From an uncultured Sandaracinaceae bacterium (GTDB taxonomy: Bacteria; Myxococcota_A; Polyangia; Polyangiales; Houyiibacteriaceae), in contig CAZHPJ010000001.1 of NCBI GenBank assembly GCA_964534585.1, positions 1 to 24,091 of the forward strand: 24,091 bases of DNA, in the 5' to 3' direction. Positions 1 to 24,091 of the stretch are shown piece after piece. A program made the translations under genes and the position numbers. The notes beneath the pieces are model-generated. The model searched no databases and was not told the origin of the DNA. It saw only the letters and a list, made by a program, of their open reading frames with translations. How positions within the stretch are numbered: position 1 is the stretch's first letter; the number at the start of each line of letters is the position of its first letter.

Positions 1-126
1 GCCGCCCGTGCCGCCCACGCCGCCCGTGCCGCCCACGCCGCCTTCGCCGCCCGTACCGCCTTCGCCGCCGATGCCGCCTTCGCCGCCCGCGCCGCCTTCG
101 CCGCCCGTGCCGCCCGTGCCGCCGTC
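1..126 (-). repeat. Coding low-complexity tandem repeat (9-bp and 18-bp units) encoding GGT/GGV/GGE/GGA
   Basis: Repeated gccgcccgt / gccgcccac / gccgccttc units on the + strand, in frame with the 1-816 lipoprotein. Confidence 0.9.
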
Positions 127-816
127 ACCGTCGACGCAAGTGACGTCGATCGTGTGGTCGCACTGGCAGTATTCGAAGCCGTCGTCGGAGACCGTGATGG
201 TGATCGTCTGCTCGCCGACCTCCTCACAGGTGAAGGTCGTTATCGGCACGGTGGGGTTCGCGAACGAGCCGCCAGTTCCGGTCCACCGGTACTCGATTTC
301 GTCCCCCTCGAGGTCCACAGCTATCGCATACACGTCGATCTGATGGCCCACCGAAGTTTGGAGAGGAGCGACCACCATTTTGATGAGCTCCGTACAAAAA
401 TTGAACTTCCCATTGACGCGTACCCCACCGAGCTCCTGCGGAGGCTTACAGTGGAGCATCACAGCCACCTCGGTCACCTGACCCACGGTGACATTGAAAT
501 TGGCCGAGCCCGAGCAAGACGTCTCACCGTCGGTGGACGTCGCGGTCAGCATGACGGTGTAGTTCATGCCGCCGGGGATGCCGTAGATCTCGACCGACGC
601 TGTCGCCCCGGGGTTGCTGGTGTTGATCGAGCCGACGATTGGCTCGATGTCGTTCCCTGTGACGGAGTAACTGACCTCGTCGATCTCGGTACCGTCGGTC
701 AGCTCGAGCTCGACGGTAAGGTCGCCTGAGGGGCCTGTGTCAGCTGCACATCCTGCGAAAGCAAGGGCGCCAAAGAGCCAGCCAACTAGCCAGCGCGTGG
801 GGATCCATGTGGGCAT
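1..816 (-). CDS. Predicted lipoprotein with Cys-containing beta-rich region and Gly-rich (GGx) linker; 3' end lies beyond the window
   Basis: Not in the ORF track because no stop is reached. ATG at 816 with GGAGA SD (825-821). My translation: MPTWIPTRWLVGWLFGALAFAG-C-AADTGPSGDLTVELELTDGTEIDEVSYSV...TFTCEEVGEQTITITVSDDGFEYCQCDHTIDVTCVDGDGGTGGTGGEGG. Lipobox AFAG-C; frame open to base 1. Confidence 0.85.
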   Translation of the reverse strand, partial: MPTWIPTRWLVGWLFGALAFAGCAADTGPSGDLTVELELTDGTEIDEVSYSVTGNDIEPIVGSINTSNPGATASVEIYGIPGGMNYTVMLTATSTDGETSCSGSANFNVTVGQVTEVAVMLHCKPPQELGGVRVNGKFNFCTELIKMVVAPLQTSVGHQIDVYAIAVDLEGDEIEYRWTGTGGSFANPTVPITTFTCEEVGEQTITITVSDDGFEYCQCDHTIDVTCVDGDGGTGGTGGEGGAGGEGGIGGEGGTGGEGGVGGTGGVGGTGG

Positions 817-893
817 AGGGTCTCCTGGGGGGCGCCGACGATATCACAACTCACGCTACGGCAATTGACGTTTTTCCTGGGACCCACCGGGAT

Positions 894-909
894 TGTGAGG
901 CGTCTCACA
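894..909. promoter_or_regulatory. CRP/FNR-family binding site (perfect TGTGA-N6-TCACA)
   Basis: TGTGA GGCGTC TCACA in the intergenic region, centred about 85 nt upstream of the lipoprotein ATG. Confidence 0.6.
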
Positions 910-976
910 CAAGGACACCTAACATAGAGACACCCCGTAAAGCCGACGCGTCGCGTCGTCCACGGGGCTTCGCTGT

Positions 977-1702
977 CTAACGCTCCTGGGCCTTGCCCGT
1001 CATCGGCACGAACCTCACTGGAATCACCGGCTCCTCGCGGTAGCCGTCCTTGGTGCGGGTCACCCGCATCAGGCTTTGGTAGTGCTTGCCGACGGGGATG
1101 ATGAGATGGCCCCCGACTTTGAGTTGTTGCTTCAAAGGCTCGGGGATCTTTGGCGGGGCGGCGGTCACGATGACTGCGTCGAACGGTGCGTGCTGCGGCC
1201 AGCCCGCGTAGCCATCCCCGTGCCGAACCTGCACCCGTTTACCGTAGCCAAGCTCGGAGAGGATGGCTTTGGCTTGCTTGGCAAGCGGCTCGATGATCTC
1301 GATCGAGAACACCTTCACGCCCATTTCCGCAAGCACCGCGGCTTGGTATCCCGAGCCCGTCCCGACCTCGAGCACCGTGTCGCCGGACTTCACATTGGCG
1401 AGCTCGGTCATCAGCGCGACGATGTACGGCTGGCTGATCGTCTGCCCGCGGGCAATGGGCAACGGCCGATCGTCGTAAGCGTGCGCCCGCTGCGACTCTG
1501 GGACGAAGCGGTGGCGCGGCACCTTGCGCATCGCCTCGAGTACACGGGCATCCCTCACCCCGCGTGCCTCGATTTGCCTTCGCACCATGTCGAACCGCTC
1601 TTGCTCGCGCGCCACCGGCTCAGGTGGGACGGCGTGGGCCGACCCCGACTTCTGACCGCAGGCGCCGAACACGAGCAGCGCCACCCATGTAGCTCTTCGC
1701 AT
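977..1702 (-). CDS. pcm: Protein-L-isoaspartate(D-aspartate) O-methyltransferase, with a lipoprotein-signal-like N-terminal extension
   Basis: Motifs [69 protein letters not shown] and VRFVPM. Start moved from the track's 2182, which would overlap lysC, to ATG 1702. Confidence 0.93.
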
Positions 1703-19433: not shown

Positions 19434-20138
19434 ATGCCTAAGAGGACCCCATCACCAAGTCCGCAACCCCGCGGAACCCAGTCGATTCAGCGAATTCTCG
19501 ATGCGGCGGCCAGCCTCTTTGGAACCGAAGGCTACCGCGGCGCTTCGATGACGGCAGTGGCCGAGGCAGCCGGTGTCTCTAAGAGCCTGCTGCACTACCA
19601 CTTCCAGGGCAAAGAGCACCTGCTCTTCGAGGCACAACAGGCCGCGTATCGAAGAATCCATCAACACTTTCAAGCTCGATTCAGCCAAGGTGAACGAGGC
19701 ATCGACACCGCCCTCGAAGCGCTCGATGCCCTGTGGCAAGCCGTTCATGACATGCGCGCCTGGGCGCCGTTCATGATCGAAACGATGAGCTTGGCCTCGC
19801 AGAACGAGCGCGTCCACCAACTGGCCCAGAACTTTCTCGATGAGTCGACGGCCCTTCTCGAGAGTGGCGTCACCCAAGTGTTCAAAGACGAGCAAGCCCG
19901 ACTCATCGCTACACCCGAGCGAGTAGCCCGCGTCGTACGAGCATGCATTCAGGGCCTCATCGTCGAGCTATCGCTCGCAAGAACCGAAGAAGACCTGCGC
20001 AACGTCGAAGGGATGTACCAGGACATGAGGAATATGTTCGAACGCGCCGTCCTCTCTAGTGCCGGCCAATCGGCAACGCCACGCCCTGTCGATTCAGTGG
20101 AGCTCGCGACTCGGACCATCGAGGAGAACGCATCATGA
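19434..20138 (+). CDS. TetR/AcrR-family transcriptional regulator
   Basis: RILDAAASLFGTEGYRGASMTAVAEAAGVSKSLLHYHFQGKEHL HTH. Confidence 0.93.
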   Translation: MPKRTPSPSPQPRGTQSIQRILDAAASLFGTEGYRGASMTAVAEAAGVSKSLLHYHFQGKEHLLFEAQQAAYRRIHQHFQARFSQGERGIDTALEALDALWQAVHDMRAWAPFMIETMSLASQNERVHQLAQNFLDESTALLESGVTQVFKDEQARLIATPERVARVVRACIQGLIVELSLARTEEDLRNVEGMYQDMRNMFERAVLSSAGQSATPRPVDSVELATRTIEENAS

Positions 20139-21118
20139 CTCAGCCAATTCTGCCCAAGAAATTTCAGCCCACCTCATTCGGCGAAATCGCCTATCTGGAG
20201 ACCGGTTCGAGCGACCGGCCACCGGTGTTGCTGATTCACGGCATCCCGACCTCAGGGTTCCTCTGGCGCAATGTGATGCGCTACCTGCAAAACGATTTTC
20301 ACTGCTACGCCCCGGACCTCATGGGGCTCGGCGATACCCGGGTCGATCCGGAAACGGCAGAGTTCGACATGGAGGCTCAGGCCGAAATGCTGGCGTCTTT
20401 CATGAGCGCGCTGGGGCACGAGGAGTTCGTCGTCGTGTGCCATGACCAAGGCGGTGCCGCGGCACAGATCCTCGCCGCGCGCGTTCCGCAGCGCATCCGC
20501 TGCATGGTCTTCACCGACTGCGTTTGTTACGACAACTGGCCGGTGCCGGCGATCATGCAGCTGCAGGCCATCTCCCGTGTGCCGCTGCTGCCTGACCTGC
20601 TGAATCGAAGCGGAGCGATGGCCTGGTTGGAGACGAAGACCCGATTCTCGAACTTTCGCAAGGGCGTCCACAATCCGAGCCGGCTGAGCGACGAAACGAT
20701 CCACGAGTATCTTCGGCCGCTACAGGAGAACCGCAAACGTCGTGAAGCCTTTCGCGCATTTCTCCTCGCCGGGCATCCCCGCTACACGCTCGCGGCGGTG
20801 AGCGGGCTCAAGGCCTTCCACAAACCGACCATGGTGATCTGGGCAGCGGATGACGTCTATCTATCGCCGTCGTGGGGATTGAGGCTGATGGAGGACATCC
20901 CGGGCGCAGAGCGATTCGAGCTGGTCTCTTTTTGCGGCCACTTCTGGCAAGAGGAACGCCCGGCCGAATTCGCAGGGAAGATCGGCGCATTTCTGACCGA
21001 TGTGCTCTCGCGGGAAGTCCCGGAAGAGGCGGACGCGACGAAGTCCGCGCCAGCGGATGAGAAGAAGGGAGCCCTCTCCAACAAGAAGCTCCCGGTAGTG
21101 ACCCAAGAGGTTGGCTGA
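20135..21118 (+). CDS. Alpha/beta hydrolase, Asp-nucleophile class (haloalkane dehalogenase / epoxide hydrolase-like)
   Basis: HGIPTSGFLWR, APDLMGLGD, nucleophile CHDQGG, His base GHFWQEE; ATGA overlap with tetR. Confidence 0.88.
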   Translation: MTQPILPKKFQPTSFGEIAYLETGSSDRPPVLLIHGIPTSGFLWRNVMRYLQNDFHCYAPDLMGLGDTRVDPETAEFDMEAQAEMLASFMSALGHEEFVVVCHDQGGAAAQILAARVPQRIRCMVFTDCVCYDNWPVPAIMQLQAISRVPLLPDLLNRSGAMAWLETKTRFSNFRKGVHNPSRLSDETIHEYLRPLQENRKRREAFRAFLLAGHPRYTLAAVSGLKAFHKPTMVIWAADDVYLSPSWGLRLMEDIPGAERFELVSFCGHFWQEERPAEFAGKIGAFLTDVLSREVPEEADATKSAPADEKKGALSNKKLPVVTQEVG

Positions 21119-21153
21119 ACACCACCCAATCGCGACGAAGAGAGGAAGAGGCG

Positions 21154-23004
21154 ATGCTAGCCAATGAGATTCTGCTAACGACACCGACCTATCCTTACCC
21201 AACCCTGCCGGCCAATGATTCGTTGACCGACGCGACCGGGCAGCGCTTCACCAAGGGCGACAACGTCTTCACGATGGTCTCCCACACCCATTGCTTCGCC
21301 AATCACATTCTCGCGCAAAACGTGCGGACCCCGGTGGTGGTAATGGAGTACCCCCGGTGGGACGATTTCAAGGCGGAAGTCGACAAGGGCTATCCGGTGA
21401 TCGGCATCAGCACCTATCCGGTCCACTTGGCCCGGGTACTCGAGATGTGTGAGTACATCCGCAACCGCTCACCAGCGACCAAGATCCTGCTCGGCTCCCA
21501 TGGGGGCATGGCCTTTCGGTCCGTGTACGACAAGGACACGCAACGCAAGTACGTCGACCGCGTCGTGCATGGAGAGGGCGTGCGGTTCTTGCGCCGTTTC
21601 CTCGGGGAGACCGATATCGACCGACCGATCCGCCAGGCCCTGATGCCCAAGGCGGGGGGTGCGCCACCGTTCATGAGCAAGTACCCCGTCGGCAATATTG
21701 CGTTCCTCGTCTCCGGACTGGGTTGCATCGGCGGCTGCGATTTCTGTTCCACTACGGCGCTCTTCGATCAACACCGGACCGAGCTACTTTCCCCCGCCGA
21801 GCTGGTGGAGCACATCCGGCTCTACCACGACCATTTCCCCTCGGTCAGCCAGGTCTTCGTGATCGAAGAAGATCACTTCCGTTACCCCAAGTACCTCGAG
21901 GGCGTCCGCGAGTTGTGGATGGAGCAGCCCAAGATGATGGAGCAACTCGACTGGTTTGCTTTCGGTTCGATCGACTTCATCGGCCGCTACGCCGACAAGT
22001 ATGGATGGGATGCGCTTGCCGAGACCGGGATCGGCACCATCTTCATCGGGGTCGAATCGAAGTTTGCTGGGGAGCACGGCTACAAGAAGCGCAAAAGCGC
22101 GAACGCTCAGGAGGTGTTCCAGAAGCTCCACAGCATAGGCATCCGCACCGTGGGCGCCTGGATGTGTGGCTTCGACTTCCACAACCATGCGAACGTGACG
22201 GAGGACCTGAACTACCTGGTCTCGCTCTATCCGACCTACCAGCAGCTGACCCGGGTTTCGCCGCTCCCCGGCACGGCGTTGTGGGCACGCATGAATGAAG
22301 AGAATCGCGTCCGCGATGTGCCCTGGGAAGACGTACATTTTTGGAGCAGTGCGCTCAAGAACACCAACTTCGAGCCCCATGAAACTCTGAACATCACAGA
22401 GTACGGCTACGATCTCCTGTACCAGACCTGGGGTCCTTCGATTCTCCGGCGATTGGACGTGCAGCTGTCGGGCTACGACTTCTGCCGCCGCTCGCCCAAC
22501 CCGGTCCTGCGACGCCACAAGGCACTCTTCTTCAAACGCCAGTGCGCGATGCTCTGGACGAACCTCTACGGAATGGACCGTTTCGCGCCCAACGGCGTCG
22601 TTCGACGACGGGTCCGCAAGATCGACGAGAAGTACCGCGCGCTGCTCGGCGAACCCACGCCGGTGATGAAGGCCCTTGCGCGACTGATGGATGTCGCGGT
22701 GACGGGCGCGAAGGTGACGGAGTTCTTCGACTCGATGAACCGGCACCCAAAGGAAGAGCCCTATCACCGCTACGTCTACAAGAACAATGGCGAGAGCGAC
22801 AGCGCGATTCCATATCACAAGGAGTGCCCGACGCCCCGCACGCGGGCCGTGCGGCGAGGGATGGCACGGGAAGCACTTCAACGTCGATCGATGGCGATGG
22901 GACTGAAAGCCAGCAAGGTCGTTGGTTGGCGGGACGGCGATCCGGCGATCGACGATTTTTTGGTGAACATGGTGGAGAGTGGTCGAGTGGGGTTCGGCTT
23001 CTAG
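21154..23004 (+). CDS. Radical SAM protein with N-terminal cobalamin-binding-like domain, function unknown
   Basis: CxxxCxxC (GCIGGCDFC); N-terminal Rossmann-like segment (VIGIS...KILLGSHG...VVHGEG); FIGVES, GFDFH and SPLPGTALW, as seen in B12-dependent radical SAM enzymes. Confidence 0.85.
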   Translation: MLANEILLTTPTYPYPTLPANDSLTDATGQRFTKGDNVFTMVSHTHCFANHILAQNVRTPVVVMEYPRWDDFKAEVDKGYPVIGISTYPVHLARVLEMCEYIRNRSPATKILLGSHGGMAFRSVYDKDTQRKYVDRVVHGEGVRFLRRFLGETDIDRPIRQALMPKAGGAPPFMSKYPVGNIAFLVSGLGCIGGCDFCSTTALFDQHRTELLSPAELVEHIRLYHDHFPSVSQVFVIEEDHFRYPKYLEGVRELWMEQPKMMEQLDWFAFGSIDFIGRYADKYGWDALAETGIGTIFIGVESKFAGEHGYKKRKSANAQEVFQKLHSIGIRTVGAWMCGFDFHNHANVTEDLNYLVSLYPTYQQLTRVSPLPGTALWARMNEENRVRDVPWEDVHFWSSALKNTNFEPHETLNITEYGYDLLYQTWGPSILRRLDVQLSGYDFCRRSPNPVLRRHKALFFKRQCAMLWTNLYGMDRFAPNGVVRRRVRKIDEKYRALLGEPTPVMKALARLMDVAVTGAKVTEFFDSMNRHPKEEPYHRYVYKNNGESDSAIPYHKECPTPRTRAVRRGMAREALQRRSMAMGLKASKVVGWRDGDPAIDDFLVNMVESGRVGFGF

Positions 23005-23014
23005 GAGCTCTGGC

Positions 23015-24091
23015 GTGCACCACCAACAACAGATCATGCCGTTCGCCTCGCTACTTGGCCAAGAGAAGGTCAAGCGGGCTTTGTTGATGCTTGGCGTGAA
23101 TCCGCGACTCAACGGCGCGCTCCTGCGCGGCGAAAAAGGCACGGCCAAATCGACGGCAGCCCGAGCCCTGGCCTCCCTGCTGCCGTCGATCGAGGTCAAT
23201 CAGGGATGCCACTTCGGCTGCCGAAGCGATCGCCCAGCAACCTGGTGCGCAGAATGCCAACGCCGCTCCGACCGAACCGTCGTTGAACGTCGCCCACCGT
23301 TTGCAACGCTGCCACTGGGCATTACGGAAGATCAGCTCTTGGGCACGATCGATTTGGAACGGGTGCTTCAACAAGGCGAGCAACGCTTCAAGCCGGGATT
23401 GCTGGCGCGGGTGAACCACGGTGTGCTCTACGTGGACGAGATCAATCTGCTGGACGACCACATCGTCGATCTGCTCCTGGACTCGGCGGCGATGGGCGTC
23501 AACGTGGTCGAACGGGAGGGCATCTCGGCTACTCACCCCGCAGACTTCCTCTTGGTCGGCACGATGAACCCGGAGGAAGGAGTGCTGCGCCCGCAGCTAC
23601 TGGATCGCTTCGGGCTTTGTGTCGAAGTAACCGCGTCACGGGACGCCTCCGAACGGGCCGAGATCATCGACCGATGCCTGGCGTTCGAGCGCGATCCTGT
23701 TGGGTTCACCCAAGCCTATGCCGAGACCGACGCGGCGCTGTCTGAACAGATCCGGCAGGCCCGGGAGTTGCTCCCTGCCGTCGAGGTGGACCCGAGCTGG
23801 CTGACCACGGTCGCCGAGCTCTCGCTTGCGCTCGGCGTCGACGGGCACCGCGCCGACATCCTCATGATCAAGGCGGCCCAGACGCTCGCCGCATTGGATG
23901 GACGGACCGCGATCCACTCTGACGACATCGAGGTTGCGACGGAGGTCGTCTACGCGCACCGATTGCGCCGTCGACCGTTCGACGATCAGGCCCAGGGCGA
24001 CGAGAGCTTCCGCGAAACGGTCCGCGAGGTCGTCGGACGGCGGGAAAAAAAAAAGGAACCGCAGGGAGAAGTCCAACGTCGGACGGGAAGG
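23015..24091 (+). CDS. Mg/Co-chelatase AAA+ subunit (ChlI/ChlD family); runs off the window end
   Basis: Not in the ORF track (no stop). GTG 23015 with AGGAG SD. My translation: MHHQQQIMPFASLLGQEKVK...LLRGEKGTAKSTAARAL...LPLGITEDQLLGTIDLE...PGLLARVNHGVLYVDEINLLDDHIVDLLLD...GTMNPEEGVLRPQLLDRFG...GVDGHRAD...AHRLRR. Confidence 0.92.
   Translation, partial: MHHQQQIMPFASLLGQEKVKRALLMLGVNPRLNGALLRGEKGTAKSTAARALASLLPSIEVNQGCHFGCRSDRPATWCAECQRRSDRTVVERRPPFATLPLGITEDQLLGTIDLERVLQQGEQRFKPGLLARVNHGVLYVDEINLLDDHIVDLLLDSAAMGVNVVEREGISATHPADFLLVGTMNPEEGVLRPQLLDRFGLCVEVTASRDASERAEIIDRCLAFERDPVGFTQAYAETDAALSEQIRQARELLPAVEVDPSWLTTVAELSLALGVDGHRADILMIKAAQTLAALDGRTAIHSDDIEVATEVVYAHRLRRRPFDDQAQGDESFRETVREVVGRREKKKEPQGEVQRRTGR
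24045..24055 (+). other. Candidate programmed -1 frameshift / transcriptional slippage site (A10, A_AAA_AAG)
   Basis: Ten consecutive A (24045-24054) read GAA AAA AAA AAG in the chelatase frame, immediately after the AAA+ domain. Confidence 0.65.

Follow-up and report, generated by a model that had tools for sequence, protein, structure and literature searches.

This locus raises the question of whether a run of ten adenines enables one gene to encode two proteins and, if so, which of them is the default product. The window, by which we mean the whole stretch of 24,091 nt that was analysed, ends within a chlD-type AAA+/vWA gene, and the A10 run lies just before the point where the DNA stops. 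The initial annotation had taken this for a cobalt chelatase gene that yields both ring subunits, with an early stop in the 0 frame and a vWA domain reached by a -1 shift. Our comparison with relatives points to a recoding site at this position, probably operating with the opposite polarity.

The gene at the window end and its A10 run

The 5' part of the gene, comprising the AAA+ module and the start of a linker, occupies positions 23015..24091 on the + strand and is truncated where the contig stops. By homology with P0001, whose N-terminus is VNQHQQIMPF, we place the likely start at the GTG at 23015, 8 nt downstream of a GGAG; an ATG at 23036 is an alternative, and the reading frame is open from 22979. 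The AAA+ module is covered by profile matches to Pfam Mg_chelatase (PF01078), AAA_5 and AAA_lid_2 (PF17863). The NCBIfam model TIGR02442, 'putative cobaltochelatase', is matched over positions 2-343 of its 641 with 477 bits, and TIGR02030 (BchI/ChlI) matches the AAA+ module with 383 bits. The AAA_lid_2 match extends to residue 327 of the 352 aa translated, which leaves 9 codons before the A run; the run does therefore lie close behind the AAA+ domain as had been noted.

The run itself occupies 24045..24054 on the + strand within GGG-A10-GG, and it aligns with A runs in the relatives. The phase computed from the frame of the ORF gives the 0-frame codons GAA AAA AAA AAG GAA, with an A_AAA_AAG heptamer at 24049..24055 (+ strand). 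Both the letters and the phase agree with the earlier description, and our recomputed translations around the run, KKKEPQGEVQRRTGR in the 0 frame and KKKGTAGRSPTSDGK in the -1 frame, match the peptides given there. The remaining 12 codons (24056..24091, + strand) are the first of the linker, reading EPQGEVQRRTGR in the 0 frame, and they are colinear with the frame that contains the vWA in three relatives, L099, L018 and L103.

The window corresponds to the complete contig C1 of a MAG with 632 contigs and 3.27 Mb, which is 87% complete and has 62.5% GC. The A10 is the only A/T run of at least 7 in the window, and the only one of at least 9 in the MAG. An iid model gives an expectation of 0.28 runs of 10 or longer, and in the window's genes AAA accounts for only 18% of the codons for Lys. 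A single run of this kind per genome could arise by chance. What marks it as non-random is its placement at the site where homologous genes carry A7-A11. We identify the run, by sequence comparison, as a conserved poly-A recoding site of the known chlD-type AAA+/vWA kind.

The length of the run is reproducible. The Logan contig of sequencing run X6 spans the A10 with 0 differences from the window. That of run X2, from a different study, spans it with 0 gaps and has 12 substitutions in 494 nt at a depth of 34.5. These X2 and X6 contigs reach 57 and 89 nt, respectively, beyond the window end. A homopolymer assembly error as the origin of the A10 is therefore unlikely, as three assemblies, including that of a different strain, agree on ten adenines.

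Contig C1 stops 37 nt past the run, and we have looked for the missing 3' part. Within the MAG no k-mer overlaps connected the end to other contigs and no match to the C-terminal part of TIGR02442 was present, and the vWA and BcrAD genes of L103 found no match there by tblastn or blastn. A search for fragments crossing the run, with the last 120 aa as the query, gave no near-identical match, and the exact DNA pattern of run plus flank had 0 matches among genome contigs. A double BcrAD_BadFG gene in the same MAG (G000 contig C4:13763-15577, open frame 1217 aa) was considered as the missing downstream gene and rejected, as it is only ~25% identical to the protein found at that place in relatives.

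Breaks at the A run are seen in more than one assembly. The run lies 37 nt before the end of the window contig, and QMMB01000141.1, the contig that carries L103, starts inside the run with 8 A's. In the MAG, C9 and C338 also have G9-G10 runs at 51-54 nt from a contig end. The fragmentation of these assemblies may stem from heterogeneous homopolymers or from sequencing error.

The frame that leads to the vWA module

Everything 3' of 24091 is read from relatives, and the vWA module of the window's gene is a prediction on that basis. The nearest relatives are L018 and L099, with 91% DNA identity and 92% protein identity to the window, and between themselves they share 99.08% identity across 3911 nt, with one gap. 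L099 has A10 and an uninterrupted ORF of 701 aa that runs from AAA+ through the linker to vWA. In L018, which has A9, the 0 frame encodes 363 aa before its stop, the vWA protein of 338 aa lies in the -1 frame, and the locus is annotated as two genes with an ATGA overlap. In the alignment the window reads GGG-A10-GGAACCG, L099 GGG-A10-GGGACCG and L018 GGG-A9-GGGACCG, and otherwise the sequences are free of gaps to the window end. The 0-frame peptide of the window is the counterpart of KKKGPQGEAQGPTGRSDP... in the L099 fusion.

The third relative, L103 (QMMB01000141.1, a contig of a Guaymas 'Deltaproteobacteria' MAG), begins inside the run with an ORF at 1..1074. It reads AAG GAA CCG CAC... (KKKEPHGQVQRSTGRSEP...) through to VVDISGSM, a motif that is present together with PF13519 in L099, L018 and L103. 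The alternative frames are closed in all three. The -1 frame ends at GTC TGA, equivalent to a point ~3 nt past the end of the window contig, and the +1 frame at G TGA, equivalent to a point ~20 nt past it, so that these conserved stops fall 14-17 codons after the run. From this colinearity the 0 frame of the window most likely continues into the vWA module, in DNA that lies off the contig. The expectation of an early 0-frame stop with the vWA in the -1 frame is thereby probably reversed, as in the relatives it is the -1 frame that stops.

The difference between L018:1864-1872 (A9) and L099:1759-1768 (A10) is a single indel that toggles between two ORFs of 363 and 338 aa and one of 701 aa. Either the homopolymer is polymorphic in nature or one of the two contigs was misassembled. 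The pair documents A9 and A10 alleles in strains that are 99% identical.

We have compared 80 metagenomic loci at ~50% identity, found with the AAA+ protein as the metagenome query, together with the nearer relatives. Among the metagenome matches listed none was a close relative of the window's gene, all being roughly 50% identical. Of 64 loci in which the vWA directly follows, 50 have it shifted by -1 relative to the AAA+ frame and 13 have the two modules in frame; a single locus has it at +1. All but one of the 50 '-1' loci have an A7-A11 run at the homologous site, 26 of these being A9 and 17 A10, so the conservation that the initial annotation had proposed to check is borne out. The run in these loci lies within the overlap of the open -1 frame and the 0 frame before its stop, and the 0-frame stop is usually 1-9 nt beyond it. 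The overlap is no more than 60 nt in 23 of the '-1' loci, and shrinks to 10-16 nt in L037 and L039. The combination of A10 in phase 1 with the vWA in the -1 frame occurs in 15 relatives.

In-frame fusions take two forms. Six of the 13 have no A run of six or more at the site (L033, L038, L063, L082, L094 and L097). Others keep the run and have an immediate -1 stop, namely L080 and L083 (A10, AAC TGA) and L056 (A9). As these also combine a retained run with a -1 stop, the in-frame polarity has arisen more than once.

Two loci depart from the common pattern. L011, from G028 of the same order (60% identity), has no long A run in a genome of 72% GC; a G_GGA_AAA at 2271-2277 precedes the 0-frame TGA by 13 nt, and the vWA motif VVVDASGSM lies in the -1 frame. 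By its sequence this is possibly a classical heptamer variant of chlD recoding. L071:1681-1725 is the sole locus with the vWA in +1, and its 0-frame stop is preceded by runs of A8 and A7; it may be a variant of the +1 or deletion type. Among genomes of the window's own genus most lack the gene, and five of 24 have a different paralogue (46% identity) in which a separate chlI is followed by a full chlD.

Recoded chlD-type genes are said to have been named fs-chlD by Antonov in MBE in 2020, and that name is in use. The family surveyed here is the published fs-chlD recoding family (Kuznetsov 2022, PMC9227772) and the same as the earlier 'magnesium chelatase' cluster of frameshifted genes. In reporter assays of that cluster, frameshifting was 10%, 40% and 63% for A7, A9 and A11, and for fs-chlD the fused product was seen together with some internal initiation (Antonov 2013, PMC3711429). 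The claim of recoding to give two subunits from one gene thus stands on family-level comparison and on those assays, but its polarity is likely reversed here. Like the published genes, that of the window has a ChlI-like AAA+ module with the poly-A run immediately behind its lid; a vWA/MIDAS module beyond the run, and two products of different length from the locus, are predicted from the relatives. It differs in that the long product is most likely made in the 0 frame and slippage would give the short one, so that by colinearity with L099, L018 and L103 a shift into another frame should not be required to reach the vWA.

Proposed slippage on the run and its alternatives

We propose, with a probability of roughly 0.7, that the length of the run puts the vWA module in the 0 frame and that a slip on the A10 gives a short ChlI-like protein, the long form being the default. 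Ordinary decoding of the 0 frame would produce a ChlD-like protein of ~700 aa, and a slip of one base on the run would produce a ChlI-like ATPase of ~355-360 aa. The -1 frame could be entered if RNA polymerase added an A or if the ribosome shifted by -1 on A_AAA_AAG, and the +1 frame if an A were lost during transcription. Either slip would end the product 14-17 codons past the run at the conserved stops. A single gene could in this way supply both ring subunits, with dnaX-like polarity. That slippage occurs in the source organism, and by which dominant mechanism, we infer from sequence.

We favour a large share of length-driven slippage, by RNA polymerase and/or by sliding of the ribosome. 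The family keeps 9-10 A's when the heptamer needs 7, and published frameshift efficiency rises with the length of the run. In addition, no RNA structure above shuffled controls was found 3' of the run: for 82-nt folds of L099, L018, L100, L101 and L102 the z values against shuffles were -0.56 to +2.1. This lack of a detectable stimulatory 3' structure in the window's relatives is another difference from fs-chlD. Among the 27 tRNAs found in the 87%-complete MAG, Lys-UUU was the only one seen for Lys. A tRNA-Lys(CUU) would damp slippage on AAG.

The dnaX genes offer a close parallel. In E. coli dnaX, A_AAA_AAG directs -1 PRF to give gamma, and in Thermus thermophilus dnaX an A9 run is the site of transcriptional slippage. 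As in dnaX, the gene is of AAA+ type, and its long protein would come from the 0 frame and a slip would give a truncated protein that retains the ATPase module; as in the Thermus gene, both alternative frames are predicted to be closed soon after the run. There are also differences. The protein function is unrelated, no downstream hairpin was found, no clear upstream SD-like element is present at the window's run, and the -1 stop, taken from the relatives, falls 14 codons after the run compared with 1-2 in dnaX.

The inferred layout of the window is in-frame, and it could be that the run is a relic, with the fusion created by gain of one A, essentially only the long protein being made and no useful slippage. 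The 13 related in-frame loci, six of which lack an A run of at least six, indicate that the fused protein works unrecoded, and an in-frame gene that is functional without recoding is a point against a need for slippage. However, a 10-nt homopolymer composed of the rare AAA codon has been kept at 62.5% GC in at least three strains, and early stops are retained in both alternative frames of three relatives. No second, separate ChlI-type gene was found in the MAG, in keeping with a requirement for the short form, although at 87% completeness a small-subunit gene could be missing. Since comparable run lengths also slip measurably in published assays (PMC3711429), we consider a relic distinctly unlikely. 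The layout of the initial annotation, with an early 0-frame stop, the vWA in -1 and a shift that gives the long product, would apply if the true run were A9 or if a compensating indel lay downstream. It is the commonest in the family, it is found within the nearest clade in L018 (A9), L100, L101 and L102, and 15 relatives combine it with A10 in phase 1. The assembly breaks at the run hint at heterogeneity, and a compensating indel could sit beyond 24091, outside the contig. Against this, the MAG, X6 and the independent strain X2 all have A10 with 0 gaps, and the 37 nt past the run are gap-free against L099, L018 and L103, whose equivalent frame reaches the vWA, making such an arrangement quite improbable.

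It might also be argued that nothing is recoded at all, and that the A run simply encodes the Lys-rich tail of the first of two translationally coupled genes. In L018, L100, L102 and L106 the called vWA start overlaps the upstream stop by 4 nt, an ATGA-type overlap that would by itself yield a -1 relation, and some internal initiation was observed in the reporter assays of Antonov 2013 (PMC3711429). Yet the ATG of L018 is GTG in L103, and, starting at the run, the -1 frame stays open in 50/50 loci, even in those of 38-50% GC where the overlap is 10-46 nt. A Lys tail in a GC-rich genome has no need of a pure A9-A10, in-frame fusions exist, and a fused product was obtained in the assays (PMC3711429). 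Taken together these points make coupling without recoding highly improbable. We therefore retain the reading in which the long protein is the default and a slip on the A10 gives the short one, which extends the known family of recoded chlD genes by a probable in-frame member of the dnaX-like type.

A practical consequence concerns annotation. The initial annotation had expected that such a gene would be mislabelled as a pseudogene or as two genes; the latter part is borne out in the relatives, for which separate 'ChlI' and 'vWA protein' genes are routinely called. A pipeline will report a single gene or a pair depending on one base in the run, which is also a place where contigs tend to break.

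Gene context and possible function

The gene belongs to a conserved cassette that occupies 19434-24091 of the window. At its head is a TetR-family regulator (19434..20138, + strand; Pfam TetR_N), followed by an alpha/beta hydrolase (20135..21118, + strand; Pfam Abhydrolase_1) and a radical-SAM-like gene of 616 aa (21154..23004, + strand; weak Pfam Radical_SAM and weak BchE/HpnJ-like NCBIfam matches), separated by a 10-nt gap from the chlD-type gene. A hydrolase lies at the equivalent position in L100, L102, L106, L107 and the contig of P0010. Radical-SAM-like orthologues lie upstream in L011, L018, L099, L100 and L102, and similar genes in L106 and L107. In the relatives the slot of the regulator is filled by a MerR-like protein instead of TetR.

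A role in cobalt chelation is doubtful for this gene. The 87%-complete MAG gave no match to CobN/ChlH (PF02514) or to CbiC (PF02570), the sole corrin-pathway marker searched. A cobN gene is next to the chlD-type gene in no relative of the window's clade, and such adjacency is confined to the distant in-frame fusions L033 and L087. The operon context differs too, as the clade has a cassette with a hydrolase and a radical-SAM-like gene, often with a BcrAD-DUF2229 gene, and is not found with cobN as in fs-chlD. With neither cobN nor cbiC found and with this context, the role is unsupported here. Frameshifted chlD genes also occur in genomes without cobN or chlH, or without the pathways for B12 or chlorophyll ('stage 1'), and their function is listed as unknown (Kuznetsov 2022, PMC9227772). 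The cassette, with no cobN nearby, suggests that orphan ChlI/ChlD pairs act outside tetrapyrrole chelation, and the linkage to the hydrolase and the radical-SAM-like gene, with cobN not found, provides a handle on what they do.

There may be a functional analogy in MoxR-type pairs of AAA+ and vWA proteins. Pairs such as NorQ/NorD, CbbQ/CbbO and CoxD/CoxE act in maturation and are encoded beside their target enzyme. The window likewise has an AAA+ ATPase, with a predicted vWA/MIDAS partner, near a radical-SAM-like gene; unlike those pairs its ATPase is of the ChlI/BchI type, as the TIGR02030 match indicates. We speculate that the AAA+/vWA complex might mature or remodel the neighbouring radical-SAM-like enzyme. 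A bolder proposal is that the pair of this clade is a maturation motor for that enzyme and not a chelatase, and that A9 and A10 alleles within one species, as in L018 and L099, flip the default subunit, so that natural populations tune the short:long stoichiometry by the heritable length of the run in addition to slippage; we put it forward tentatively and regard it as unlikely.

The arrangement of regulator, hydrolase, ~615-aa radical-SAM-like protein and AAA+/vWA gene is shared within the clade by the window, L018, L099, L103, L100, L102, L106 and L107. A frequent further member is a BcrAD_BadFG+DUF2229 protein of 1290-1430 aa. The relatives that bear the cassette are labelled Schekmanbacteria, Myxococcota/Myxococcales and 'Deltaproteobacteria'.
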